A stretch of 64,000 nucleotides of DNA from Subdoligranulum sp. CAG:314 (lineage in GTDB: Bacteria; Bacillota; Clostridia; Christensenellales; CAG-314): positions 25,312 to 89,311 of the forward strand of contig FR900987.1 in NCBI GenBank assembly GCA_000437915.1. The letters are read 5' to 3'. Made by a program: the position numbers and the translations under genes. This document shows, piece by piece, positions 10,274-25,426 of this stretch. Each line of letters begins with the position of its first letter. Within the stretch, counting starts at the first letter, position 1. The notes under the pieces were generated by a model that saw only the letters and a list, made by a program, of their open reading frames with translations, was not told the origin of the DNA and did not search any database.

Positions 10274-12991
10274 TCAGACTATTTCAAAAGATACGGAGCA
10301 GTCTATGTTTATGCCGTCGAAAAGATAAATTTTTATGCTCACGAAATAAGTCTTGCCCTCCTCTATCTCATAGCACCAGCTTTGCGGATTTTCGTAATCG
10401 GAGAGCACAACGTATTCTACGCCTGACACGTCGTCTGTCTGCAAATAAAATTCGTCGCCTGTCAAACCGTCGTACAACAGATTGAGACTGCCGCTTCGCG
10501 GCGCGGTAAAGCGGAAATAGACCGCCCTGCCGTTTTTAAACGTCACGTCGAGAGCTTCGCCGTTTGCGTCAAGCTCGAAGTCTCTGCCCCATGCCTTGCC
10601 GTCCTGCACCCTTTGCTCGCCGAAGCGCGCGTAGAGGGTTATTGTATCTTGCTCGAAATAAGCGGGGAACTCCACTCTTTCGCCCCAGTCGCCGTCCGCG
10701 CTTCCGTCGCTGAGATACCAGCCCTGAAAATATCCCGAACCCTCGCACGTCGGCTCGGTTTTAACCAATGAGTCGGTAAATACGGCAACGGTTTCGCCGT
10801 CTTTTTTAAGGGTATAGGCAGTGTCGGAAATCTCCGATAAGTCAATTGCCTCCGCATACGCGGGAGCGTAAAGATAAAATTCGGAGTAATACGAGGCGAT
10901 TGCATTTTGCGGCACGACGAATTCGCACAGAAGAATAGCCTCCCACGTCATACTGTCGTAGCCCGAAGCAAAAACGCTGTATGTACCGTTGTGGCTGCCG
11001 CCAAGAAACGGAGCTTTTTCCCCCTCGAAAATAACCTTTTTGAGATTGGGCGCGCCGAAAAAAGCGGATTGACCAAGCATTTCGACGTTGCCCTTAAATG
11101 TAATTTCCTTCAACGCGTGCGCGTTGTAAAACGCCGACTGTCCCACCTTTTTTACATCGCCGCCGATTACAAGCGTTTCAAGAAACGCGGTTGCTTCGCA
11201 GGAGTAACCCTCTATTGCCGCAACTCCCTCCGGCACGGTATAGGAAGTTGCCGCTTTCCGCGACGGATAGCACACAAGCGTGGTCATATCCTTTGTGTAA
11301 AGCACTCCCTCATCCGCAACATAGACCTCGTTTCCGTCTTCGACCGACAGAGAAACCAAATATTCGTTAAGGAACGCCGAAAAACCCACGTACGCGACCG
11401 AAGCGGGAATTTCAAACTCAGAAAGCGCGGTAACGTAAAAAGTGTTTGCGCCTATGTATTCGAGCGAGGGCGTCCCCCTGAACTCAACATCGCTCAGATT
11501 TTCGCAGCCGGTAAACACCCCACCCGTGATACCCATAAGCTGCACTTCTCCGAAAACGTAAGTATCGCTGCGCAAGGATACAAGAGTCGAGGGCAAAAGC
11601 ACGGATTTTAAGGAGCTGCCGAGAACGGCGCTGAACGTCCAGCCGTAAAGCTCGGTGATCCCCTCGGGCAGGGTTACGGTTTCCAGATTTTTCAGTTCTG
11701 CAAAGGCAAAGGGCGAAATATACGTCACGCCCTCAGGCACGTCGAATTTAACTGCGGATGAGTTTTGAGCGTAAACAAGCAGTCTGTCGCCGTTTTTGCC
11801 GAGATATTGCGGCCCGCTCCCCTTTTCGACAATGCAGTCGTCCTTGATTGCGTAAAAATCGTTTTCATCCGCGCCGAGCATGGACACAGACGTAAAAATA
11901 TAATCACTTCCCGAATTGGTAAAAGCCGCTTCCCCTATGTAACGCACTGTCTTGTCGATTTTCAAATTGCGTATGTTGCAGTCCTGAAACGCGCAGTCGC
12001 CTATTTTTTCGATTCCTTTCAGCACAAGATTTTCCAAAGTCGCAAAGCCCAAGGACTCGAATGTTTCTTCGTCCCACAAAGAGCCGCAGCACGAGCGGAA
12101 AAACGCTCCGTTAAGGTTGAAATCGCCTCCGTCCTCGTAGTCGTATTTTTCCGCAAATATTTTTCCCTGCTCTGAATCGACGCCTGAAATTTCTTTTACG
12201 CCCTTTTCAAAAACCAAATCGGTTATGTAAGGACATTGAAAAAAAGCGCCCCACTCTATCGCGTCTATATGCCCCTTGAAGGTTAGCCCCGTGATTGACT
12301 TGTTTCTGACAAAAGCGTATGCCTTGACCCGCGTGACGGTTTCAGGGAAAACAATGTCGCCGGACGCGGTCGAACTGCCGACGTAAACCGCGGTCTTGTC
12401 GACGTCGTAAATTATTCCGTCCTCCTGCACGTAATTGACGTTGTCGCCCTTCAAAACGTACTCAATCGCCGTCGTAGTTCCGAAAGGCATGATTCCCCAA
12501 TCGAGCAGCGTGTCGGGCAGAGTCACTTTGCTCAGATTGTAACCGGAAAAACTCGCAAGTCCAAGTTTTTTTACTCCGTTTTCCAACGTAACATTTTTGA
12601 GCATATAACAATTTCGGCAGGCTCCCGACTCTATCGTTTCGTAGCTTGACGGTATATACAAATCCGTCAGCGTCATATTTGAAGAAAAAGCGTTTTTCTT
12701 CAACCTCGTGACGGGAAGTCCGCGATACGTGTCGGGTAAAGCCGTCTTTGCGGGAACAGAACCCGTTGTTAAGCCCGCAAGGGAGTATGAAACCTTATCC
12801 TCGTTGAGGGAAAATTTGAAATAAAAATCGTCCGTCGGCACATATTTGTAAATCGCGCTCGCAGTCATATCCTCTTTTACGTTGGTTATGGATTTGTCCC
12901 AACCGATTACGTCAAAGCACCAGCTGTTTTCATTGGACTCCTGTACGAGCACGTCGTTTGGCGCCACCGAGCCGTTGTAAGGCACTTCCAC
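10274..12991 (-). CDS. BspA-type leucine-rich-repeat surface protein, body lacking an in-frame signal peptide (probable frameshifted gene)
   Basis: 905-aa ORF with many LRR units of the pattern ...AF..C..L..V.LP..v..Ig..aF. GYFQGWY (Listeria-Bacteroides repeat-like) lies near the C-terminus. The ORF opens only with GTG 12991 and has no usable RBS spacing. Confidence 0.8.
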   Translation of the reverse strand: MEVPYNGSVAPNDVLVQESNENSWCFDVIGWDKSITNVKEDMTASAIYKYVPTDDFYFKFSLNEDKVSYSLAGLTTGSVPAKTALPDTYRGLPVTRLKKNAFSSNMTLTDLYIPSSYETIESGACRNCYMLKNVTLENGVKKLGLASFSGYNLSKVTLPDTLLDWGIMPFGTTTAIEYVLKGDNVNYVQEDGIIYDVDKTAVYVGSSTASGDIVFPETVTRVKAYAFVRNKSITGLTFKGHIDAIEWGAFFQCPYITDLVFEKGVKEISGVDSEQGKIFAEKYDYEDGGDFNLNGAFFRSCCGSLWDEETFESLGFATLENLVLKGIEKIGDCAFQDCNIRNLKIDKTVRYIGEAAFTNSGSDYIFTSVSMLGADENDFYAIKDDCIVEKGSGPQYLGKNGDRLLVYAQNSSAVKFDVPEGVTYISPFAFAELKNLETVTLPEGITELYGWTFSAVLGSSLKSVLLPSTLVSLRSDTYVFGEVQLMGITGGVFTGCENLSDVEFRGTPSLEYIGANTFYVTALSEFEIPASVAYVGFSAFLNEYLVSLSVEDGNEVYVADEGVLYTKDMTTLVCYPSRKAATSYTVPEGVAAIEGYSCEATAFLETLVIGGDVKKVGQSAFYNAHALKEITFKGNVEMLGQSAFFGAPNLKKVIFEGEKAPFLGGSHNGTYSVFASGYDSMTWEAILLCEFVVPQNAIASYYSEFYLYAPAYAEAIDLSEISDTAYTLKKDGETVAVFTDSLVKTEPTCEGSGYFQGWYLSDGSADGDWGERVEFPAYFEQDTITLYARFGEQRVQDGKAWGRDFELDANGEALDVTFKNGRAVYFRFTAPRSGSLNLLYDGLTGDEFYLQTDDVSGVEYVVLSDYENPQSWCYEIEEGKTYFVSIKIYLFDGINIDCSVSFEIV

Positions 12992-13159: not shown

Positions 13160-13204
13160 AATTGCCGCACTCTGCGGTAATTATAACCGCATAGTGCGGC
13201 AATT
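13160..13204. promoter_or_regulatory. 45-bp near-perfect palindrome, putative MarR operator (two 6-3-6 sub-palindromes)
   Basis: AATTGCCGCACTCTGCGGT-AATTATA-ACCGCATAGTGCGGCAATT, with arms matching 18 of 19. It contains GCCGCA-ctc-TGCGGT and ACCGCA-tag-TGCGGC. Confidence 0.6.
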
Positions 13205-13209
13205 GTCAA
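13180..13209 (-). promoter_or_regulatory. sigma-A type promoter of the LRR/lipoprotein gene
   Basis: Minus strand TTGACA (13209-13204), 18-nt spacer, TATAAT (13185-13180). The -10 sits at the centre of the 45-bp palindrome. Confidence 0.65.
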
Positions 13210-13250
13210 ATGATTTAACACAATTTTGCCAAAAAATTTTGCATCTCTAT

Positions 13251-13279
13251 TTGACAAACAAACAATTAAATTTTAAAAT
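13251..13279 (+). promoter_or_regulatory. sigma-A type promoter of marR-family gene
   Basis: TTGACA (13251-13256), 17-nt spacer, TAAAAT (13274-13279). Confidence 0.65.
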
Positions 13280-13298
13280 ACAAAATGGAAGAACAAGA

Positions 13299-13889
13299 AT
13301 GGATATAAACGGCGTAAAAGAATACGGAAAACTGATGGATAAAATGCAGGTGGCATACACCAATCTGGTCGCTACCATGGAGTGGGAGCTGTTTCGGCGC
13401 GGAGCTTATTCGGGTTTTTTGGACGATATTTACATGAGAAAGGTCTCTGCAATACTCGACCGGCAAAGCCCCCTGCCCACGCATGTTCTTGCGGAGAAAG
13501 CGCACATTTCACCCAAATGTATTCATCGAACCTTGAAAAAACTCGAAGAAAAAGGTCTGATAGAACGCTCCAAACAGGAGGGCAACAAAAAAACGCAATA
13601 TATTTCGCTGACGGAATCTGCCAAAAAAGATATGAAAACGCACAGCGAAAATTCGCAGGAAATTATGCAAAGCATTTTCAACGGCGCGTTAAGCGAAAAC
13701 GAGAGAATGCAGATGCTCACGGCGACGGAAACGCTGCTTAATATTTTTGAAAAATGTTGCGCTTTTGCCGACACGGACAACAAACCCGTTCAGCCTGCGC
13801 ACGTGCATTTTTCCTACGACCTGACGCAGCACGTCCTGTCAAGCAAAACTTCGCCGTTTGCCAATCGCAAAAACAAAAAAACGCCTTGA
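13299..13889 (+). CDS. MarR-family transcriptional regulator
   Basis: Start moved to ATG 13299 (MDINGVKEY), which lies downstream of the mapped promoter. Winged-HTH segment LAEKAHISPKCIHRTLKKLEEKGLIERSKQEGNKKTQYISLT. Confidence 0.8.
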   Translation: MDINGVKEYGKLMDKMQVAYTNLVATMEWELFRRGAYSGFLDDIYMRKVSAILDRQSPLPTHVLAEKAHISPKCIHRTLKKLEEKGLIERSKQEGNKKTQYISLTESAKKDMKTHSENSQEIMQSIFNGALSENERMQMLTATETLLNIFEKCCAFADTDNKPVQPAHVHFSYDLTQHVLSSKTSPFANRKNKKTP

Positions 13890-13910: not shown

Positions 13911-13948
13911 AAAAAAGCGTAACCATTCGGTTACGCTTTAAATTTTTT
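13911..13948. terminator. bidirectional terminator
   Basis: AGCGTAACC-attc-GGTTACGCT 9-bp stem with AAAAA upstream and TTAAATTTTTT downstream. Confidence 0.75.
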
Positions 13949-14025: not shown

Positions 14026-15090
14026 TCAGTCAAGAGAGGTTTCGCAATAGGCGCACCTTTCCGTGCCGCCGTCAAAGATTGACAGCTTTTCGAGCGACGG
14101 CTCGGCATTGGTTATGCATCTTGGATTGGGGCAGCTCTTTTGCGTAAGCGTGCCGCCGAGTTTTGTTTCGCCCGAAGCACCGCCGTCCTTTAAAAGCGTA
14201 AGCAGCAGCGACATACGCGCGAATTTGCCGTAATTGACCTGCTCGAAATATTTGGCGCGGCTGTCTTTGTCAACGTCTGCGGCAATCTCGTTTACCCTCG
14301 GCAGCGGGTGCATGACTATCATATCCTCCTTTGCAGAGCCAAGTTTGTCCCTTGTGAGAACGTAGCTGTCTTTAAGACGCTCGTATTCGTCTGCGTCGGA
14401 AAATCTTTCCCGCTGAATACGCGTCATGTAAAGCACGTCAAGCTCCGACATATATTCCTGCAAATCGGCAGTTTCAACCGCCTTGCCGCCCTTTTGCTTG
14501 ATTGCTTGGAGCATATATTCGGGCAGTCTTAGCTCGCGCGGAGAAATCAGCACGAAGCTGTTTCCCTCGTATCTCAAAAGCGCGTTTAAAAGAGAATGCA
14601 CCGTGCGGCCGTATTTCAGGTCGCCTACAACCCCCACCTTCAAGCCGAAAAGCCGCCCTTTCTCCGCGTGAACGGTGACAAGGTCGGTAAGCGTCTGCGT
14701 GGGATGGCAGTGACCGCCGTCTCCCGCGTTAATTAAGGGCACCCGCGCCCAAGCGGCAGCCGCCCTCGCCGCGCCGTCCTTGGGATGACGCATGGCAATC
14801 ACGTCGGAAAAGCAGCTCACGACGCGCGCCGTGTCGCCGACCGTTTCGCCCTTTGCGGCGCTCGAACTGTCTGCGGAAGAAAATCCCAGAACTCTGCCTC
14901 CCAATTCAAGCATAGCCGCCTCGAAGCTAAGTCTCGTGCGCGTGCTCGGTTCAAAAAACAGCGTGGCAAGCGTTTTGCCGTCAAGGGCATGGGCGTAAGC
15001 CTCTCTGTTTTTCATAATGTTTTCAGCCTGATTTACAAGCGCGTCGATTTCCGAAACGCTCATATCGGTTATATCCAGCAAATGTTTCAT
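14026..15090 (-). CDS. pyrB: aspartate carbamoyltransferase catalytic chain fused to a PyrI-type zinc domain
   Basis: STRTR and HPTQ carbamoyl-phosphate/aspartate motifs and HPLPR. A ~54-aa C-terminal extension carries CPNPRCITNAEP...RCAYCE, compared with the E. coli PyrI CPNSNCISHAEP...KCKYCE recalled from memory. Confidence 0.85.
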   Translation of the reverse strand: MKHLLDITDMSVSEIDALVNQAENIMKNREAYAHALDGKTLATLFFEPSTRTRLSFEAAMLELGGRVLGFSSADSSSAAKGETVGDTARVVSCFSDVIAMRHPKDGAARAAAAWARVPLINAGDGGHCHPTQTLTDLVTVHAEKGRLFGLKVGVVGDLKYGRTVHSLLNALLRYEGNSFVLISPRELRLPEYMLQAIKQKGGKAVETADLQEYMSELDVLYMTRIQRERFSDADEYERLKDSYVLTRDKLGSAKEDMIVMHPLPRVNEIAADVDKDSRAKYFEQVNYGKFARMSLLLTLLKDGGASGETKLGGTLTQKSCPNPRCITNAEPSLEKLSIFDGGTERCAYCETSLD

Positions 15091-15100
15091 TTTTTCTCCG

Positions 15101-15730
15101 TCAGTTTTTTATCCAGCTCTCGTCGGACGGATTGTCGCGGAACGCAAGCACACGTCGGACGTTCTCCGGACCGATTATTTTTTTCTCCTCAGCCACCTCG
15201 CACAGCTCGTCAAGATTGGAAAGACTCACGTTTTCCACGTTTGCTCCGGAAAGCTTTTCCGCGCTCTTACTCATGTTGTAGGAAAAGATGCTGACAATGC
15301 CAAGCACCTCCGCACCCGCCTCGCGCAAAGCCTCCACCACTTCTATTACGCTTCCGCCCGTGCTGATAAGGTCCTCTATGACCACAACCTTTTCGCCCTT
15401 TTCGAGTTTGCCCTCAATGCGGTTGGTTCTGCCGTGCTCCTTTGCGCCGCTCCTGACGTAACCCGCAGGCAGGCGCAGGATATGCGCCGCGATTGCGCAG
15501 TGCGCTATGCCCGCCGTGCTTGTACCGAACAGAGCCTGAGCTTGAGGATAACGCCGCCTTACCGTTTCCGCAATGGCGTTTTCAACCGCGTCGCGCGCCT
15601 CCACGTCGGTCAAAACCAACCTGTTGTCGCAATAAATGGGGCTTTTTATGCCGCTTGCCCAAGTAAACGGCTGCTCCGGGCGCAGAAAAACCGCACCTAT
15701 TTTCAAAAGATAACCCGCTATTTCTTTCAT
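15101..15730 (-). CDS. pyrE: orotate phosphoribosyltransferase
   Basis: PRPP-binding motif VVVIEDLISTGGS. 209 aa, in pyr operon context. Confidence 0.9.
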   Translation of the reverse strand: MKEIAGYLLKIGAVFLRPEQPFTWASGIKSPIYCDNRLVLTDVEARDAVENAIAETVRRRYPQAQALFGTSTAGIAHCAIAAHILRLPAGYVRSGAKEHGRTNRIEGKLEKGEKVVVIEDLISTGGSVIEVVEALREAGAEVLGIVSIFSYNMSKSAEKLSGANVENVSLSNLDELCEVAEEKKIIGPENVRRVLAFRDNPSDESWIKN

Positions 15731-15739
15731 ATCTGCCTC

Positions 15740-16450
15740 CTATCCCAAAAATTCCTTTACGCAGCGGAAATAAGCCTCCGCGGGGCTCTCGACGGCGGTA
15801 ATCGGTCTGCCTACCACTATGAAGTCACTTCCGATTTCTTTCGCCCTTTGCGGTGTGGTTACGCGCACTTGGTCGCCCTTTTCGCCGTCGGCAAATCTTA
15901 TGCCGGGCGTGACGGTAAGAAAATCCTTTCCGCACGCTTCCTTTACAAGACGCGCTTCGAGCGGACTGCACACAACGCCGTCCAGCCCGCACCTTGCCGC
16001 ATTCTGCGCATAGGAGGCGACAGTCGTCTCCATATCGCAATTTATCAGCAGCTCGTTTTTCAACATATTTTCGCTTGTAGACGTGAGTTGGGTTACCGCA
16101 ATCAGCAGAGGACGCGCGCCGTCATGCCGCACAAGCCCCTCCGCCGCGCGTTTCATCATTTCGGAGCCGCCTGCGGCGTGCAGGTTTACCATATCCGCTC
16201 CGAGATTTGCAAGCACGCTCATGGCGCGTCCCACGGTGTTGGGTATGTCGTGCAGTTTTAGGTCGAGAAATACATCGAAGCCCTCGCCCTTCAAACGCCT
16301 GACCACGTCCGGTCCCGCAGAGTAAAACAGCTCCATTCCCACTTTCAAAAAAGGCTTTTTTTCGTAACGCTTAAACAGCCCTACAAAATTGTCAAGCTCC
16401 GCCTCCGACGGGAAATCGCAAGCAACGATAACGTCCTTTCTTTTGTTCAC
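15740..16450 (-). CDS. pyrF: orotidine 5'-phosphate decarboxylase
   Basis: FLDLKLHDIPNTV motif. GTG start overlapping the pyrD stop (GTGA). Confidence 0.9.
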   Translation of the reverse strand: MNKRKDVIVACDFPSEAELDNFVGLFKRYEKKPFLKVGMELFYSAGPDVVRRLKGEGFDVFLDLKLHDIPNTVGRAMSVLANLGADMVNLHAAGGSEMMKRAAEGLVRHDGARPLLIAVTQLTSTSENMLKNELLINCDMETTVASYAQNAARCGLDGVVCSPLEARLVKEACGKDFLTVTPGIRFADGEKGDQVRVTTPQRAKEIGSDFIVVGRPITAVESPAEAYFRCVKEFLG

Positions 16451-17361
16451 CTGTGCGCTCCTCCGATAATATCGCTTATTTTTTTTATGCCGTATTTTTT
16501 CATGACTCGGGGCAAGTCTTCGATTATTTCCTTGCAGGCGAAGGGATTGACGAGGTTTGCCGCGCCCACCTGCACGGCAGTCGCGCCCGCAAGCATCATT
16601 TCCGCAACGTCCTCGGCGCTCTCCACTCCTCCCATGCCCATAATGGGAATTTTCACCGCTTCGTACACGTCGTAGACCATGCGCAAGGCAACGGGAAACA
16701 ACGCGCCCCCCGACAGTCCGCCCCTTTTGTTTGCAAGAACGGGTTTAAAGGTCTTTAAATCTATCCTCATGCCCAAAAGCGTGTTAATCAGGCTCAGCCC
16801 GTCCGCGCCCGCGTCCTCGCACGCTTTGGCAATTTCCGTTATATCGGTGACGTTGGGGCTGAGTTTTACGTAAACGGGCTTTTTCACGGCGGCTTTGACG
16901 GCGCTCGTGACGCGAGCCGCGTTTTTCGCGTCGGTTCCGAAAGACATACCGCCGTTGTGGACGTTGGGGCAGCTTATGTTTAGCTCTATCAGCCCCACCT
17001 GTTCGCAGCCGTCGAAGATTTCGGCGCAGCGCACGTATTCTTCAACCGAAAAGCCGCCCACGTTGGCAATGACCTTTTTCCCGTAAATTTTTGAAAGCTC
17101 TCCAAGCTCCTCTTTTGCCACCTTTTCCGCACCGGGGTTCTGCAAGCCGACGGAGTTCAACATACCGCTTTTGGTTTCCGCTATGCGCGGACAAGGGTTG
17201 CCGTCGCGCGGGTTTAAGGTCGTCCCCTTGAAGCTGAACGAGCCGAGTATGTTTATGTCGTAAAACTCCGAAAAGACGCTGCCGTAACCGAAGGTTCCGC
17301 TTGCGGGAATAACGGGATTGTCCAGAACAAGACCGCTCAAACTGACCTTGGTGTCTACCAT
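16447..17361 (-). CDS. pyrD: dihydroorotate dehydrogenase B, catalytic subunit
   Basis: Start moved to ATG 17361 (MVDTKVSLSG) behind GGAGGAGG. Class 1B PyrD motifs are present. It overlaps the pyrK stop by 7 nt. Confidence 0.9.
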   Translation of the reverse strand: MVDTKVSLSGLVLDNPVIPASGTFGYGSVFSEFYDINILGSFSFKGTTLNPRDGNPCPRIAETKSGMLNSVGLQNPGAEKVAKEELGELSKIYGKKVIANVGGFSVEEYVRCAEIFDGCEQVGLIELNISCPNVHNGGMSFGTDAKNAARVTSAVKAAVKKPVYVKLSPNVTDITEIAKACEDAGADGLSLINTLLGMRIDLKTFKPVLANKRGGLSGGALFPVALRMVYDVYEAVKIPIMGMGGVESAEDVAEMMLAGATAVQVGAANLVNPFACKEIIEDLPRVMKKYGIKKISDIIGGAHR

Positions 17362-18092
17362 ATTACCTCCTCCGAGCTGAACACGGGACCGTCGGCGCAC
17401 ACCCGCCTTACTCCTTGCGTAGTGTTGACCGCACAGCCCATGCAGGCGCCGAAGCCGCAGCCCATGCGCTCTTCGAGACTAACCTCTCCCCTGATTTCGA
17501 GAGAAGCGCTCAGCACTTTAAGCATTGCCTTGGGACCGCACGCGAAAAAGAAGTCGCAGTCCGTCTGACGCGGCAGAGCCGCCGCGACTGTTCCCTTTAA
17601 GCCTGCGGAGCCGTCCAATGTCGCAATTTCCACTTGGGCGCCGACGGCTTTGAACTCGTCCGCAAGCATGACGTCCGCAGCCGAATTGAAGCCCAGCGCG
17701 ACATAGGCATTTTTCCCGCTTTCAATCAGCCTTTTTGCCAAAAGCAACAGAGGAGGAGCGCCTACGCCGCCGCCGCAAATCAGCGCGGTTTTTTTGCATT
17801 TGTCCAAACTGAAACCGTTTCCAAGCCCCGTCAAGGCCCTGACTCTGTCCCCCTTTTTCAACGAGGACATATATTCCGTACCTTTGCCCGTCACCTTGTA
17901 GACAAGGCGTATACCGTCGCCGTAAACGTCGCACACGGATATGGGACGACGCAGAAAAAAGCCGTCAAGCGCCACTTCGACGAATTGCCCCGCCCTTATG
18001 CCCGCGCGGCAATCGCCTTTGAGTCTCAAATCATACACGTCGGCGGCAATTTTTTCGTTGCTTGCCGTTTCAAAAATAACTTCCTTTTTCAT
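17355..18092 (-). CDS. pyrK: dihydroorotate dehydrogenase electron-transfer subunit
   Basis: FAD/NAD-binding fold plus a C-terminal 2Fe-2S Cys cluster (CGFGACMGCAV...C). I prefer ATG 18092. The ORF track opens at TTG 18104, abutting the carB stop. Confidence 0.85.
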   Translation of the reverse strand: MKKEVIFETASNEKIAADVYDLRLKGDCRAGIRAGQFVEVALDGFFLRRPISVCDVYGDGIRLVYKVTGKGTEYMSSLKKGDRVRALTGLGNGFSLDKCKKTALICGGGVGAPPLLLLAKRLIESGKNAYVALGFNSAADVMLADEFKAVGAQVEIATLDGSAGLKGTVAAALPRQTDCDFFFACGPKAMLKVLSASLEIRGEVSLEERMGCGFGACMGCAVNTTQGVRRVCADGPVFSSEEVIW

Positions 18093-18100
18093 TTGCCTTT

Positions 18101-21100
18101 TCAAGAATCTATCGTGCTGACGGTAATGGTGATTTCTTCAAGCACGTCAAGCAGGGCGCGCACCGTTTCGAGAGCGGTGAACATGGTTACGTTGTTTTCC
18201 ACCGCGCACCGTCTTATCTGAAAGCCGTCCGTTTGTTGGTCAACCGAATCTATGTCGCGCGTGTTGATTACGTAATTTACGTACCCCTTGCGTATGGAGT
18301 CGAGTATTTCTTCGCTGCCGTCGCTTATTTTCTTTTTTGCGCGCGTCTTTATCCCCCTGCTTTTGAGGTATTTCGCGGTGCCTGTCGTTGCCTCGATGTT
18401 GAAGCCGAGCCTGTAAAACCTCTCTATGAGAGGAAAAGCCTCGTCCTTGTCCTTGTCTGCAATGGTGACGAACACCGTTCCGTAATTGACCACGTTCATG
18501 CCCGAAGCCTGCAACGCCTTGTACAGCGCGCGGGTAAACTTTTCGTCGTAGCCTATCGCCTCGCCCGTGGACTTCATTTCGGGGGAAAGGTATGCGTCCA
18601 GACCGTGGATTTTGCTGAACGAGAATACGGGCACCTTGACGTACCACTTTTTCTTTTCCTCGGGATACAGCTCCGTCAGTCCCTGTTCTTTCAGGCTTTT
18701 GCCCAGCATAACCAACGTGGCGATGTCGGCAAGCGAAAAACCAGTCGCCTTTGAAAGGAAGGGCACCGTCCGCGACGAGCGCGGATTGACTTCTATGACA
18801 AAAACATTGTCGTCCTTGTCCACAATGAACTGAATGTTGTAAAGCCCCACTATGCCTATACCCTTTCCCAGCTTCAAGGTGTAGTCCAAAATGGTTTCCT
18901 TTACCTTCCGACTCAGGCTGAACGAAGGATAAACGCTTATGCTGTCGCCCGAGTGTATGCCCGTGCGTTCAATCAACTCCATGATTCCCGGCACGAACAC
19001 GTCCGTTCCGTCGCACACGGCGTCCACCTCGCACTCCTTGCCCACTATGTATTTGTCTACAAGCACGGGCTGTTTTTCGTCGATTCTGACGGCGTTTTCG
19101 AGATAGTGCCTGAGCGTGTCGTCGCTGCCCACAATCTGCATCGCGCGCCCGCCCAAAACAAAGCTCGGTCTGACAAGCACGGGATAGCCTATTTCGTTTG
19201 CGGCTCTCACGCCGTCCTCGATTTTGGTAACGGCATATCCCTCGGGCTGCGGAATATTCAGCTTTTTGAGGATTTTTTCAAACGAATCCCTGTTCTCGGC
19301 GCGCTCGATTGCTTCGACTCCCGTGCCGATTATGTTGACGTCGAACTCTTTTAGCTTGTCCGCAAGATTGATTGCCGTCTGACCGCCCAAAGACGCAATA
19401 ACCCCCAGCGGCTTTTCAAGCTCCAAAACATTGAGAACGTCCTCTGTCGTCAACGGCTCGAAATACAGCTTGTCCGCCGTCGTATAGTCGGTTGACACCG
19501 TTTCGGGGTTGTTGTTGATTATTATCGCTTCATAGCCGAAGTCGCGTATGGTCTTGATTGCGTGCACCGTGCTGTAATCGAACTCGACGCCCTGACCGAT
19601 TCTGATAGGTCCGCTTCCCAAAACCACGATTTTGGTTTTGCCGTCGTCCCGCGTCTCGTTTTCTCTTTCGTATGTGGAGTAAAAGTAAGGCACATAGCTT
19701 TCAAACTCGCTTGCGCAGGTATCTATCATTTTGTAAACGGGAAACAGCCCGATTGATTTGCGCAGCTCAAAGACCTCCTTCAAGGTCATATCCCAGCATT
19801 TGGCAATGTACTCGTCGCAGAAACCCATGCGCTTGGCTTCTCTTAAAACGGCAAGGTCGCGCTTTCCGCTCTTGATTGCGCCCTCAAAGTCCACAATGTT
19901 TTTGATTTTGTCCAAAAAGAACATATCTATTTTTGTAAGCTCATACAGACGTTTCAAGGGACAGCCCAGCCGCATAAGCTGCGCCATAGCGAAAATTCTG
20001 TCGTCGCGCCCCGTTTTTATGTATTCTGCAAGCTCTTCCGCGGTTTGGGCGTCAAACTTTTTAAGCTCCAAATGACTCGCCCCTATTTCCAGAGAACGCA
20101 CGGCTTTCAAGAGGCTTTCCTCCATGGTGCGCCCGATACTCATAACTTCTCCCGTAGCCTTCATCTGCGTGCTCAGCACGTTGGGCGCGGTGGCGAATTT
20201 GTCAAAGGGAAATCTCGCTATTTTGGTTACCACATAGTCAAGAGCCGGCTCGAAGCACGCGGGAGTGTTTGCAAGCATTATTTCGTCGAGACGCATACCC
20301 ACCGCTATTTTTGCGGACACGCGCGCAATGGGGTATCCGCTCGCCTTGCTTGCCAAAGCCGACGAACGGGAAACTCTCGGATTTACCTCTATCAAAAAAT
20401 AGTCGAAGGACTGCGGGTCCAGCGCGAACTGTACGTTGCAGCCGCCCTCTATTTTCAACGCCCGTATGATTTTGAGCGCGCTGTCTCTCAAAAGCTGATA
20501 TTCCTTGTTTGTAAGCGTCTGACTTGGCGCGACCACTATGCTGTCGCCCGTGTGTATTCCCACAGGGTCGAGGTTTTCCATATTGCAGACGGCTATCGCC
20601 GTGTCGTTCGCGTCGCGGACAACCTCGTACTCTATTTCCTTGAAGCCTCTAATGCTCTTTTCCACAAGCACCTGTCTGACGGGAGAAAGGCGCAGCGCGT
20701 TTTTCATAATTTCTCTCAGCTGCTCCTCGTTGTCCGCAAAGCCGCCGCCCGTGCCCCCAAGGGTGAATGCGGGACGCAGCACGACGGGATACCCTATTTT
20801 TTCCGCAGCGGAAACAGCCTCTTCCGCGGAGTGCGTAATCATGCTTGGCAGCACAGGCTCGCCCAGACTCTCGCACAGCTCCTTGAACTTTTCTCTGTCC
20901 TCGGCGCACTCTATGCTCTGCGCGGAGGTGCCCAAAAGCTCCACCTGACACTCGCTTAATACTCCTTTTTTCTCAAGCTGCATGGCAAGATTGAGTCCGG
21001 TCTGCCCGCCAAGCCCCGGTATAAGCGCGTCGGGACGCTCGAAACGAAGTATTTTGGCAACGTATTCCAGCGTGAGAGGCTCCATATAAACCTTGTCCGC

Positions 21101-21280
21101 CACGGTTGTGTCGGTCATGATTGTCGCGGGGTTGGAGTTTACCAGTATGACCTCGTAGCCCTCCTCTTTGAGCGCCAGACACGCCTGTGTGCCAGCGTAA
21201 TCGAACTCCGCCGCCTGTCCTATGACTATGGGACCGCTGCCTATGACCATTATTTTCTTAATATCCTTTCTTTTGGGCAT
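18101..21280 (-). CDS. carB: carbamoyl-phosphate synthase large subunit
   Basis: 1059 aa with duplicated ATP-grasp halves. The N-terminal [33 protein letters not shown] is canonical. Confidence 0.95.
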
Positions 21281-21290
21281 AACAATCTCC

Positions 21291-22382
21291 TCAATCCTTT
21301 TTGTTCGCCGCCATAAGGCGCACGAATTTGTCGAACAGGTATCCGCTGTCCTGCGGTCCCGGCGCGCTCTCGGGATGAAACTGCACCGTAAACAACCTGT
21401 CTTTTACGCACTCCATGCCCTCGACCGTGCCGTCCAGCAAATTTTCGTGAGTGACTTTGAGTCCCGTGCCCGACAGACTGTCCCTGTCTATGGCGTAGCT
21501 GTGGTTTTGGCTTGTGATTTCCAGCCTGCCCGTTTCAAGGTTTCTGACGGGGTGGTTGCCGCCGCGATGACCGAATTTGAGCTTGAAGGTCTTTGCGCCG
21601 TAAGCAAGCCCTGCAAGCTGATGTCCCAGACAAATGCCGAAAACGGGATATCTGCCGCGGATTTTTTTGAGCAGCTCCGCCGTTTCGGGCACGTCGGACG
21701 GGTCCCCGGGACCGTTGGAGAAAAACACGCCGTCGGGAGACAAAGCCGCAATTTCCTCCGTAGCAGTGTCGAACGGCACCACCGTCACGTTGCAGCCGCG
21801 CGCGTTGAGACATCTGACTATATTGAGCTTTATGCCGCAATCCACGGCGACAACGTCGAATTTGGCGTGCGCCGTGCGCGAAAACCACTTTTTCCGCGTG
21901 GAAACGCAGCTGACTGCGTTGCGCGGCAGAGGACGTTCAAGACGTTTAAGCGCCCCCTGCGTAGAAACGTCCGAAGAAGTTATGATTCCTTTCTGACTGC
22001 CCTCGTTTCTCAGTTTTCGGGCAAGACACCTAGTGTCTATGCCGGAAATGCCGACTATACCGTACTCACTCATAATTTCGTCCAGAGTTTTGGTATATCG
22101 GAAATTGCTCGGCCTGCCGTTGTAGTCACGCACGACAAGCCCGCCGATTGAGGGCACGCGGGTTTCGTAATCCTCGTCGCACACGCCGTAATTGCCGATT
22201 AAAGGATAAGTCATAACCACAGCCTGAAACGTGTAGCTCGGGTCGCTCACTATTTCCTGATAGCCGACGGGAGAGGTATTGAAGACCAGCTCGCACACCG
22301 CCTCCCTGTCTGCGCCGAAGCCATAGCCCTCGAATACCGTGCCGTCGCCGAGCACTAATTTTTTGTCGTATTTTCTTTCCAT
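21291..22382 (-). CDS. carA: carbamoyl-phosphate synthase small (glutaminase) subunit
   Basis: Class I glutamine amidotransferase motif GICLGHQ and the HPE triad region (FTVQFHPES). Confidence 0.93.
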
Positions 22383-23623
22383 ACCGTTCTCCCGTTCTTT
22401 AACGTAAGCAAAACCCTTCCGAACACCTTTTTACCCGCAAAGGGCGTGCTTTTGCCCTTGGACAAAAAGTTTTCGGGATTTATTTCAAACGACGCGTTGA
22501 GGTCTATGACGGTCAAATCCGCCGGACTTCCCGCCGCGAGCAGTCCTCCTTGCAGCCCGAAACGCCTGCGCGGACTCACGCACATCGCTTCAATCAGCCT
22601 TTTGAGAGGAAGATTTTTTTTCTTTACCAATTCCGTGTACAGCACCGGAAAAGCCGTTTCAAGCCCCACGACGCCCATAGCGCTGTCCTTCAAGCCCTTG
22701 GACTTTTCCTCCGCGGAATGCGGCGCGTGGTCGGTGGCAATCATGTCCACCGTTCCGTCAAAAAGACCTTCGACAAGCGCCTCTCTGTCCTTAATCCCCC
22801 TCAAAGGAGGATTCATCTTGAATCTGCCGTCGTCTTGAAGACAGCCGTCGTCAAGACACAGATAATGCGGAGCCGTTTCGCACGTCACGTCTATGCCGTC
22901 AGCCTTCGCCTGTCGGATAAGAGCGACAGACTCCTTTGCGGAAACGTGGCAAACGTGGTATTTCACGCCGGTTTGCTTGGCAAGCTCGAGGTCGCGTTCA
23001 ATCATTTTATATTCGCTTGCGCTGCTTATACCTTTGTGTCCGTTAAGCCGCTGAAATTCACATTCGTTTACGTAACCGCCCGCTGCCAGCTCTCTTACCT
23101 CGCAGTGCGCCGCAATCACCTTGCCCAGCGCTTTTGCTTGAAGCATTGCCTCTTTTAAAAGCCGCGCGTCGTCCACACCGCTGCCGTCGTCCGAAAAAGC
23201 GGAGACAAAGGGAGCCATGGCTTTGAGGTCGGCAAGCTCCAAGCCCCGCCTTCCTTTTGTGATACAGCCGTAAGGCACAACCTCTATGACCGCGTCGCGT
23301 TCTATAATTTCAAGCTCCCGTTTCAGATTTTCCAAGCTGTCGGGCGGAGGGAGCAGATTGGGCATGGCGCACACCGCGGTGTAGCCTCCCCTTGCCGCAG
23401 CCATCGATCCGCTTGAAATGCTTTCCTTATAAAAAAATCCCGGCTCTCTGAAATGAACGTGCACATCAGCAAAACCGGGAACGATAATACAATCGGTGAA
23501 ATCCGACTCCTCGAAAATGTCTCCGCCGTCAAACGAAACAATGCGGCTGCCGCTCACCGCGAGATTTTCCCGCGAAAAGCCGCCGTCGTGAAAAACCCAT
23601 GCGTTTTTAAACAATCTGTTCAA
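22355..23623 (-). CDS. pyrC: dihydroorotase
   Basis: Metal-binding DVHVHFREPG. I prefer the TTG start at 23623 (AAGGAGA, 6 nt, TTG; MNRLFKNAWVF). The ORF-track ATG 23698 lies upstream of the mapped -35 and lacks an RBS. Confidence 0.85.
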   Translation of the reverse strand: MNRLFKNAWVFHDGGFSRENLAVSGSRIVSFDGGDIFEESDFTDCIIVPGFADVHVHFREPGFFYKESISSGSMAAARGGYTAVCAMPNLLPPPDSLENLKRELEIIERDAVIEVVPYGCITKGRRGLELADLKAMAPFVSAFSDDGSGVDDARLLKEAMLQAKALGKVIAAHCEVRELAAGGYVNECEFQRLNGHKGISSASEYKMIERDLELAKQTGVKYHVCHVSAKESVALIRQAKADGIDVTCETAPHYLCLDDGCLQDDGRFKMNPPLRGIKDREALVEGLFDGTVDMIATDHAPHSAEEKSKGLKDSAMGVVGLETAFPVLYTELVKKKNLPLKRLIEAMCVSPRRRFGLQGGLLAAGSPADLTVIDLNASFEINPENFLSKGKSTPFAGKKVFGRVLLTLKNGRTVWKENTTKN

Positions 23624-23657
23624 AAGCCGTCTCCTTGTCTCTTTTACGCCGTTGCTT

Positions 23658-23686
23658 ATTTTGATAGAAACGCGCGTTTTTGTCAA
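23658..23686 (-). promoter_or_regulatory. candidate pyr operon promoter
   Basis: Minus strand TTGACA (23686-23681), 17-nt spacer, CAAAAT (23663-23658). The -10 is weak. Confidence 0.45.
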
Positions 23687-23712
23687 CTGTTTTGACATGA
23701 AAAATATGTGAT

Positions 23713-23750
23713 TTTTGTCCCGCGGATTGCCGTCAACCCGCAGGACAAAA
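23713..23750 (-). other. 13-bp stem hairpin downstream of fhs (possible terminator or RNA stabiliser, no clean U-tract)
   Basis: TTTTGTCCTGCGG / CCGCGGGACAAAA on the minus-strand RNA, with one G-U pair. The same position is a C-A mismatch on the plus strand. Confidence 0.4.
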
Positions 23751-23755
23751 TTTCG

Positions 23756-25426
23756 TTAAAACAACCCGCTTATTTTCCCGGAAGCGTCCACGTCAATCTT
23801 TTCCGCGCTCGGCACCTTGCCGAGACCGGGCATGGTCATAATGTCCCCTGTCAGCGCAACGAGAAAACCCGCGCCGCTTGACACCTTGACGTTTCTCACG
23901 GTAACCGCAAAGCCGTCCGGCGCGCCGAGTCGCGTCTGCTCGTCCGAAAAGCTGTACTGAGTTTTTGCCACGCACACGGGCAGCTTGTCAAAGCCCAGCC
24001 TTGTCAGATTGGCAATCTGTTTTTTCGCCTGAGGCGTAAACACCGCTCCGCTCCCTCTGTACACTTTGGTTACGATTTTTTCCAGCTTGGTTTCAATGGA
24101 GTCGTCCGTTTCGTAAGCAAAACGAAAATCGTTTTTCTTTTCGCACAGACTCACAACCTCTCTCGCAAGAGCCTCGCCGCCCTCGCCGCCCTTTGCCCAC
24201 ACCTCGGACAAAGCCACGTTTACGTTGAGCGCGCGGCATTGTTTTTCGATAAATTCAAGCTCTCTTTCCGTGTCGGCGGGGAAACGGTTTATCGCCACCA
24301 CGCAGGGCAGTCCGAAAACGTTTGTCACGTTGTCTATATGCCTTAAAAGATTGGGCAAACCCTTTTGGAGCGCGTCAAGATTTTCCTCGTCGAGAGCCGC
24401 TTTTGCAACTCCGCCGTGATGCTTCAAAGCGCGGACTGTCGCCACTATCACTACCGCGGAGGGCTTTAACCCCGCCATACGGCATTTTATGTCGAAGAAT
24501 TTTTCCGCACCCAAATCGGCGCCGAAGCCCGCCTCCGTCACGGCGTAATCGGCAAGCCGCATGGCAAGCCTTGTCGCCATAATGGAATTGCAGCCGTGAG
24601 CGATGTTTGCAAAGGGACCGCCGTGCACAAAGGCGGGAGTGTGCTCCAAAGTCTGCACGAGATTGGGCTTCAACGCGTCCTTCAAGAGGGCTGCCATAGC
24701 TCCCTGCGCGTTGAGCTGTCCCGCTTTGACAGGCTCGCCCCCGTAGGTGTAGCCTACCGTTATGTCGGCAAGTCTCCGCTTCAAATCCGACATGTCGTAT
24801 GCAAGGCAAAGAATCGCCATAATTTCGCTTGCCGCCGTGATGTCGAAGCCGTCCTCGCGCGGCGTGCCGTTTGCCTTGCCGCCCAGACCGTCGGTCACGA
24901 ACCGCAGCTGTCTGTCGTTCATGTCCACGCATCTGCGCCACGTTATCTGACGGGGGTCTATATTTAACGAATTGCCCTGATAAATATGGTTGTCAATCAT
25001 CGCCGCAAGCAGATTGTTTGCGGCGCCTATGGCATGGAAGTCGCCCGTAAAGTGCAGATTTATGTCCTCCATGGGCACGACCTGAGCGTAACCTCCGCCC
25101 GCCGCGCCGCCCTTGACGCCGAACACGGGTCCCAGCGACGGCTCGCGCAGCGCGACCGCCACGCTTTTGCCAAGCCGCTTCAACCCGTCCGCAAGACCTA
25201 TTGTCGTCGTCGTCTTGCCCTCTCCCGCGGGAGTGGGGTTGATTGCGGTAACAAGAATCAGCTTGCCGTCCTTTCCCTTTGTTTCGTTCAGAAAATTGTA
25301 GTCTACCTTTGCTTTGTATCTGCCGTAAGGCTCGATAAATCTGTCGTCAATCCCCGCTTTTTCCGCGATTTCGCCGATGGGCAGCATTTTTACCGACTGC
25401 GCTATTTCTATGTCGCTTTTATACAT
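23756..25426 (-). CDS. fhs: formate--tetrahydrofolate ligase
   Basis: 556 aa. P-loop [26 protein letters not shown]. Confidence 0.95.

Follow-up and report, generated by a model that had tools for sequence, protein, structure and literature searches.

A catalytic chain of aspartate carbamoyltransferase fused to the zinc domain of PyrI, without the allosteric domain, recurs in gut Clostridia and Bacteroidota

The aspartate carbamoyltransferase (ATCase) gene of Subdoligranulum sp. CAG:314 encodes a PyrB catalytic chain that continues, through a short linker, into the four-cysteine zinc domain of the regulatory chain PyrI, and neither the gene nor the genome holds the nucleotide-binding allosteric domain of PyrI. 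The gene, which we call pyrB-Zn, lies in a window of 64,000 nucleotides from contig FR900987.1 (the whole stretch of DNA that was analyzed), and all coordinates below are positions in that window. The PyrB-Zn layout is common, occurring in many families of Clostridia plus Bacteroidota; its catalytic chain is of class B ancestry, and the fusion has arisen recurrently from classical pyrB-pyrI pairs. ATCase is a textbook allosteric enzyme. We consider it probable that pyrB-Zn encodes a working ATCase that is free of CTP, UTP, and ATP control and has a tethered zinc domain docking on the catalytic chain.

Table 1. Positions of pyrB-Zn, its parts, and the neighboring features in the window
Feature	Position	Strand	Details
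pyrB-Zn, single ORF, 354 aa	14026..15090	-	Catalytic chain, linker, and PyrI-type zinc domain
pyrB-Zn stop codon, TGA	14026-14028	-	
Carbamoyl-phosphate-binding domain, residues 2-141	14668..15087	-	PF02729 OTCace_N, 162.7 bits
Aspartate-binding domain and C-terminal helix, residues 149-298	14197..14646	-	PF00185 OTCace, 105.6 bits
Linker, residues ~302-318 (GGASGETKLGGTLTQKS)	14137..14187	-	Poor conservation, predicted flexible
PyrI_C-type Zn(Cys)4 domain, residues 319-354	14029..14136	-	PF02748
C320 codon	14131-14133	-	
C325 codon	14116-14118	-	
C346 codon	14053-14055	-	
C349 codon	14044-14046	-	
Bidirectional intrinsic terminator-like hairpin	13914..13939	.	Between pyrB-Zn (-) and the convergent MarR gene (+)
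MarR gene	13194-13889	+	Convergent to pyrB-Zn
Rest of the pyr operon	15101..23698	-	Upstream of pyrB-Zn; Pfam assignments
pyrC	22355-23698	-	
carA	21291-22382	-	
carB	18101-21280	-	
pyrK	17355-18104	-	
pyrD	16447-17400	-	
pyrF	15740-16450	-	
pyrE	15101-15730	-	

Results

The pyrB-Zn gene and its protein

The catalytic chain, the linker, and the tail are read in one open frame with no internal stop (Table 1). The NCBIfam model of aspartate carbamoyltransferase, TIGR00670, matched the protein at 356.6 bits against a cut-off of 237. The active-site motifs STRTR and HPTQ are present in the carbamoyl-phosphate domain, as are R162, R224, Q226, and HPLPR in the aspartate domain; when 72 fused homologues were aligned, S49, T50, R51, T52, R53, H129, P130, T131, and Q132 were invariant, and so were R162, R224, Q226, and H261-R265.

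Non-fused relatives of PyrB-Zn are 303-312 aa long, which leaves an excess of ~45-50 aa, in agreement with a first-pass annotation of the sequence that had put PyrB at ~50 aa over its usual length. That annotation had singled out positions 14026-14190, which correspond to residues 301-354 plus the stop codon, and had read the tail as the four-Cys zinc domain of PyrI. Profile searches with the 354-aa protein bore this reading out: PyrI_C (PF02748) matched residues 319-353 at 29.2 bits (Pfam gathering cut-off, 23.4; E = 8.4e-7), covering model positions 7-43 of 48, and PF01948, the N-terminal allosteric domain of PyrI, was not matched. The PyrI_C part makes up the last 36 residues of the protein, within which the tail CPNPRCITNAEPSLEKLSIFDGGTERCAYCE is residues 320-350. 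Its cysteines are spaced C-x4-C...C-x2-C as in PyrI, with 20 residues between the two Cys pairs, and the protein stops 5 residues past the last Cys. The strand preceding the first Cys is degenerate in this tail, and the loop between the Cys pairs is 3 residues shorter than in most PyrI.

The possibility that a frameshift or sequencing error had joined a normal pyrB to a pyrI remnant was examined, and no such error was found. An artefact is ruled out by the single open frame and by the recurrence of the tail, which is shared by a congener (79% identity), by a cluster with 395 member sequences (98% identity), and by hundreds of further homologues, in which the single ORF recurs.

Absence of the allosteric domain and genome context

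The genome from which the window comes is assembled in 24 contigs (1.5 Mb) and is 95% complete; throughout it, no match to PF01948 was obtained even at E<=1, and the same search recovered the domain in 7 reference genomes. PF02748 scored above its cut-off at a single place in the whole genome, the pyrB-Zn tail (14026-14136, 32.3 bits). No separate pyrI lies downstream of pyrB-Zn, where a hairpin with an 11-bp stem and a 4-nt loop, with AAATTTTTT after it and an A run before it on the + strand (identified by consensus scan only), is followed by the convergent MarR gene. The absence of both the nucleotide-binding domain and a following pyrI had been called correctly in the first-pass annotation, which had further proposed that CTP/ATP allostery was lost or relocated. 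Loss of the domain stands; relocation gains no support, as the genome has no separate allosteric domain. A split PyrI with its allosteric domain encoded elsewhere is likewise ruled out for the known domain by the lack of PF01948 in the genome.

The operon order is pyrC-carA-carB-pyrK-pyrD-pyrF-pyrE-pyrB, a complete de novo pyrimidine set with short or overlapping junctions in which pyrB-Zn is the last gene. The single copy of carB in the genome lies inside this operon and retains its MGS-like allosteric domain. Ornithine carbamoyltransferase (OTCase) is absent from the genome, the sole match to its model being PyrB itself (154 bits; cut-off, 281). Carbamoyl phosphate in this host appears to feed pyrimidines only; the ATCase step would then not be one where pathways diverge, and feedback might be exerted on the synthetase, the arrangement found in Bacillus.

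We also considered that the allosteric domain had been lost for want of an arginine branch. This is not a general explanation: in a sample of the window's class, OTCase was present in 11 of 14 fused genomes and in 338 of 399 genomes overall. Among 61 relatives, it was found in 4 of the 10 with a fused gene and in 11 of the 12 with a classical pyrI (one-sided Fisher test, ~0.015, calculated by hand and ignoring phylogeny). The missing arginine branch is kept here only as local context.

Spread of the PyrB-Zn layout

A survey of PyrB length and architecture among relatives showed that pyrB-Zn belongs to a large family and is not a local oddity, which goes beyond the first-pass annotation. The C-x4-C...C-x2-C tail was present in 115 of the 120 best homologues from a collection of 5.8 billion proteins, which were 57-98% identical to the query, and about 16 of the best 150 representatives in a 50%-identity representative library were matched through to the tail. 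Ten of the 61 relatives had PyrI_C inside an open frame of 357-481 codons, with PF01948 in 0 of 10; another 12 had a classical pyrI of ~140-170 codons with both domains, PF01948 being found in 12 of 12. Of 400 genomes sampled from the window's class, at least 14, from at least 8 families, gave full-length fused matches, a count that rests on a full-length protein search; the 150 best PF02748 matches in that class are mostly stand-alone PyrI. We delimit the group by OTCace_N, OTCace, and PyrI_C in one chain of ~350-400 aa in a genome without PF01948, and this is the composition found here.

Among species-representative genomes, carriers in Bacillota included Pumilibacteraceae, Faecousia, Ruminococcus sp., Clostridium sp. 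CAG:448, and Eubacterium spp., and carriers in Bacteroidota included 4 Alistipes, 2 Paludibacteraceae, 1 Muribaculaceae, and 1 Bacteroidales. Most carriers are gut anaerobes. The cultivable [Eubacterium] infirmum is among the carriers, with the tail on a protein of 374 aa (P0084). Sequence and fold searches of the PDB returned no solved catalytic chain with such a tail. One homologue, P0136, has the PyrB-Zn core with ~185 extra residues beyond the zinc domain.

Class B ancestry and repeated origin of the fusion

Compared with PDB chains, the catalytic part scored 306 bits against Pyrococcus abyssi (1ml4), 302 against M. jannaschii, 284 against E. coli, and 145 against the class C chain of B. 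subtilis. The query is 60-62% identical to non-fused pyrB products of the same class and 55-60% identical to fused ones. A pyrI gene lies immediately downstream at 75 of 83 non-fused loci, and a separate pyrI was found at 0 of 50 fused loci.

Trees were built from the catalytic core only, with the tail columns excluded. On a 55-row tree obtained by careful search, the fused state changed 7 times (5-95% bootstrap range, 6-8), and 0% of the bootstrap trees had a single origin; the 103-row core tree required 11 changes and the 132-row core tree 14, of which at least 6 are forced by well-supported branches. A topology with all 34 fused rows in one clade had p=0.021 in an AU test, and this result and the bootstrap trees together rule out a single origin of the fusion. 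Since a fused gene could not plausibly regain the lost allosteric domain, the pyrI-partnered genes interleaved among the fused ones indicate several independent origins. Parts of the backbone of these trees are weakly supported.

In the fused tails, the alignment with PyrI begins a few residues ahead of the first Cys and runs through to the end, and the linkers are specific to each lineage in length and sequence, with R292 and the first Cys 26-64 residues apart (mode, 29-31) in 153 fused proteins. Because the linkers differ among lineages, repeated in-frame deletions are the simplest origin; most likely, each would have taken out the stop codon of pyrB together with the first ~100 codons of the pyrI next to it. 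In the 132-row tree, the eight Bacteroidota genes group in a single well-supported clade that lies within the Bacillota genes, which points to transfer of the fused gene between gut phyla.

Conservation, selection, and predicted fold of the tail

Across 50 fused tails, the four Cys and E330 were invariant and N322, I326, R345, and Y348 were at least 90% conserved; C320, C325, C346, and C349 were invariant in the 72-sequence alignment as well. The equivalents in E. coli PyrI are, by alignment, C109, C114, C138, C141, E119, N111, I115, and Y140, with E350 corresponding to rE142. Both N322 and E350 (rN111 and rE142 in E. coli) are conserved in the fused tails, and a preprint places rN111, rN113, rE142, and rK143 in a network of hydrogen bonds between the regulatory chain and the 130s-loop/R167 region of the catalytic chain (10.1101/662718, citing Eisenstein et al. 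1989).

Pooled Nei-Gojobori estimates from 12 close fused pairs gave an omega of 0.063 for the zinc domain (dN, 0.19), 0.066 for the catalytic core (dN, 0.12), and 0.198 for the linker (dN, 0.45), values that are rough, as dS was saturated in most pairs. Between the window and its congener, omega was 0.11 for the zinc domain, 0.12 for the core, and 0.40 for the linker. By these rough values, the zinc domain is under purifying selection as strong as that on the enzyme core, and the linker is relaxed.

An AF2 model of the whole chain had a mean pLDDT of 89.7 and a pTM of 0.90, the latter not discriminating docking. Its linker was of low confidence (mean pLDDT of 56 for residues 301-310, with residues 304-306 below 50), and its tail reached 87-90. 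Foldseek aligned ~301 columns of the model with solved catalytic chains at a TM of ~0.9, which concerns the catalytic part only. The tail modeled alone had a pLDDT of 89.5, and when its fold was searched against 350,542 PDB chains, the top 12 matches were all ATCase regulatory chains, among them 1pg5_B (TMq, 0.64; probability, 0.97) and 2be7 (rmsd, 1.8 Å); the E-values of these matches are weak (0.2-1) owing to the small size of the domain. The tail is predicted to fold as the PyrI Zn(Cys)4 domain and, judging from its four Cys, would bind zinc. Conservation, selection, and predicted fold together argue that it is a maintained zinc domain and not debris.

Discussion

Proposed mechanism and alternatives

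PyrB-Zn descends from a class B catalytic chain of the E. coli/archaeal type, normally the partner of PyrI. Most likely, an in-frame deletion across the pyrB-pyrI junction took away the pyrB stop codon and the ~100-codon nucleotide-binding domain, so that the zinc domain stayed attached to the catalytic chain through a flexible linker of ~17 residues. We propose that the zinc domain docks on the carbamoyl-phosphate domain of its own chain or of a neighboring one, beside the 130s loop, at the site that regulatory chains canonically occupy. There it would stabilize the trimer and determine its kinetic state. Docking in the absence of the allosteric domain has a precedent: Markby, Zhou, and Schachman (PNAS 1991) reportedly found that the zinc domain by itself, as a 70-residue fragment, associates tightly with the catalytic trimer and changes the kinetics of the trimer. 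With the allosteric domain gone, there would be no r2 dimers, no dodecamer, and no CTP/UTP/ATP site, and the enzyme is probably a (c-Zn)3 trimer on which nucleotides have no effect by the classical route. Control of the pathway would then lie elsewhere, in the operon-encoded carbamoyl-phosphate synthetase with its MGS-like domain and in transcription. The modest PyrI_C score, 29 bits from model position 7 onward, is a counterpoint to this explanation. A nucleotide effect by another route is conceivable, plant ATCase, for example, being inhibited by UMP (PMC7878868).

Going further, we put forward only tentatively, as a possibility on the doubtful side, that PyrB-Zn represents a distinct and recurrent quaternary class of ATCase in which the tethered zinc domain acts in trans, on a neighbor chain or on a second trimer, as a high-affinity lock or as part of a sensor-free cooperative hexamer, and in which the zinc "socket" could serve as a platform for sensor domains grafted on in other lineages.

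The specific arrangement in which the zinc domains bind in trans across two trimers, by a contact of the r1-c4 type known from T-state class B enzymes, would give a (c-Zn)6 hexamer that shows substrate cooperativity without nucleotide control and would constitute a fourth quaternary class; we regard it as rather unlikely. Its attractions are that the catalytic chain comes from the class B lineage, that the 72-sequence fused consensus retains the segment GDLKYGRTVHS, which we take to include the E. coli inter-trimer contact residues K164 and Y165, and that the linkers, whatever their independent origin, always have about 16 or more free residues, which would suffice for binding in trans. That the layout has been fixed repeatedly would also suggest a selective benefit beyond stability. 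However, the trimers of E. coli are joined by r2 dimers through the allosteric domains, which are missing here, and isolated catalytic trimers do not pair; the minimum linker length, moreover, is partly explained by deletion remnants (the PyrB C-terminus plus the pre-Cys strand of PyrI).

It is improbable that the zinc domain is an adaptor recruiting a different, unrecognized sensor protein, with allostery relocated instead of lost. Other lineages do extend the PyrB-Zn core by further modules, the ~185 residues of P0136 among them, but the protein described here ends just after its last Cys, its gene is the last in the operon and is followed by the terminator-like hairpin and MarR, and no PyrI N-terminal domain occurs anywhere in the genome.

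We would give very little credence to the tail as a functionless leftover of a recent deletion on its way to loss. Its PyrI_C match is weaker than many in other fused lineages (29 bits against 48-57), and its degenerate pre-Cys strand would fit such decay. Against this, the Cys and interface residues vary little or not at all among 50-72 fused proteins whose overall identity is only ~55-60%, the zinc domain has the same omega as the catalytic core, in contrast to the relaxed linker, and the layout has been fixed independently several times and persists across families and phyla. Least credible of all is a Zn(Cys)4 site that senses redox state or zinc availability and by this means adjusts ATCase activity in a strict anaerobe. 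Carriers are mostly gut anaerobes, and four-Cys zinc sites can serve as redox switches in other proteins, which is the only other support for the idea, but no specific evidence favors it, and in classical PyrI this site is considered structural.

Comparison with known ATCases

PyrB-Zn shares its catalytic lineage with the class B holoenzymes PyrB6-PyrI6 of E. coli, P. abyssi, M. jannaschii, and S. acidocaldarius (284-306 bits, 47-50% identity, TM of ~0.9), as well as the four Cys, the conserved Asn, Glu, and Tyr, and the predicted zinc-domain fold, and the fused genes branch among pyrB genes that still adjoin pyrI. It differs from them in the covalent bond between zinc domain and catalytic chain and in that the genome lacks the nucleotide-binding, dimerizing domain; with that domain absent from the genome, neither r2 dimers bridging the trimers nor CTP/UTP/ATP sites would be present. 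PyrB-Zn is thus of class B by its catalytic lineage, but the PF01948-bearing regulatory chain of that class is lacking.

The complex of the E. coli trimer with the isolated zinc domain, as reported by Markby et al., likewise consists of catalytic chains and zinc domains without allosteric domains. It was, by that account, made in the laboratory from separate polypeptides, whereas PyrB-Zn is natural, covalent, and conserved, a natural counterpart of that classic dissection experiment.

Fusions of the Thermotoga maritima type also carry catalytic and regulatory parts in one polypeptide, the catalytic part first. According to PMC4581275, which cites Chen et al. 1998, the full-length Thermotoga-type fusion keeps the allosteric domain and is allosteric. 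PyrB-Zn, in contrast, has no allosteric domain and reached 109.2 bits against a cut-off of 800 with NF009916, the model of the full-length PyrB-PyrI fusion (model length, 525), which matched residues 8-297 only.

Likeness to class C, the trimer of Bacillus subtilis, would be functional: an unregulated trimer is probably to be expected here, with a carbamoyl-phosphate synthetase dedicated to pyrimidines. The sequence places PyrB-Zn outside that class, with 145 bits against ~285-305 for class B; class C chains have no zinc domain, whereas PyrB-Zn, at 354 aa, has an extra domain and comes from another sequence lineage.

A review of ATCases lists three quaternary types among prokaryotes, together with the fused, allosteric Thermotoga enzyme, and no zinc-only fusion (PMC4581275); our full-text literature searches found no description of a zinc-only PyrB fusion either. 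PyrB-Zn is a common and apparently undescribed form of a textbook enzyme. At least several times the sensor has been discarded and the zinc domain kept, which suggests that the zinc domain adds something to the trimer itself, possibly stability or a kinetic set-point. The layout is common in gut Clostridia and in Alistipes and so bears on the control of pyrimidine synthesis in abundant gut bacteria. Domain databases already label the parts of PyrB-Zn automatically (precomputed Pfam), and to this the present analysis adds the recurrent origin, the selection on the tail, and the cross-phylum clade.

Distribution of the fused gene across phyla

The eight genes from Bacteroidota that encode PyrB-Zn, the single-chain aspartate carbamoyltransferase with a C-terminal zinc domain, form one well-supported clade (loci L058-L060, L066, L072, L073, L079, and L094, from Alistipes, Paludibacteraceae, Muribaculaceae, and Bacteroidales). 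Because this clade is nested among pyrB genes of Bacillota, the tree suggests that the fused gene has moved between phyla in gut communities. A pyrB locus from a metagenome-assembled genome labelled Arcanobacterium sp. (Actinomycetota; L134) is Clostridia-like and adjoined by pyrI, and it falls, with weak support, within a Bacillota clade whose members are mostly fused; transfer or a mis-binned contig could explain the placement.

Variants of the fused layout

In two loci from the window's own family (L039 and L040, in genomes G016 and G025), the PyrB-Zn linker is unusually long, at ~60 residues (about residues 300 to 350), and contains many Cys and His residues (HNEEHCCDETTGCRKGNKF...EEIC); it might form a second metal site or be the remnant of another module. 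P0136, a 544-aa match from the representative library, has the PyrB-Zn layout followed by ~185 extra C-terminal residues beyond the zinc domain, for which only a weak, sub-threshold match to the Cdc6_C winged-helix domain was obtained (18 bits); the extension may be a further module that was added after the zinc domain, or it may result from a gene-call fusion.

Genomic and metabolic surroundings of the pyr operon

Just 57 nt separate the end of fhs from pyrC, which lies downstream in the same orientation, and fhs may share a transcript with the pyr operon; a long PyrR-type attenuator leader would apparently not fit in this gap. The pyr-operon carAB encodes the sole carbamoyl-phosphate synthetase of the genome, and no ornithine carbamoyltransferase was detectable in the whole genome (95% complete); the organism probably cannot make arginine via citrulline and uses carbamoyl phosphate for pyrimidines only.

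Features around the pyr operon (positions in the window)
Feature	Position	Strand	Remark
fhs (formate-tetrahydrofolate ligase)	23756-25426	-	Within region 23699-25426
carAB	18101-22382		
905-aa ORF	10274-12991	-	MarR ORF starts ~200 bp away

The 905-aa ORF appears to be repetitive and leucine-rich-repeat-like, resembling BspA-type surface proteins in its predicted sequence.
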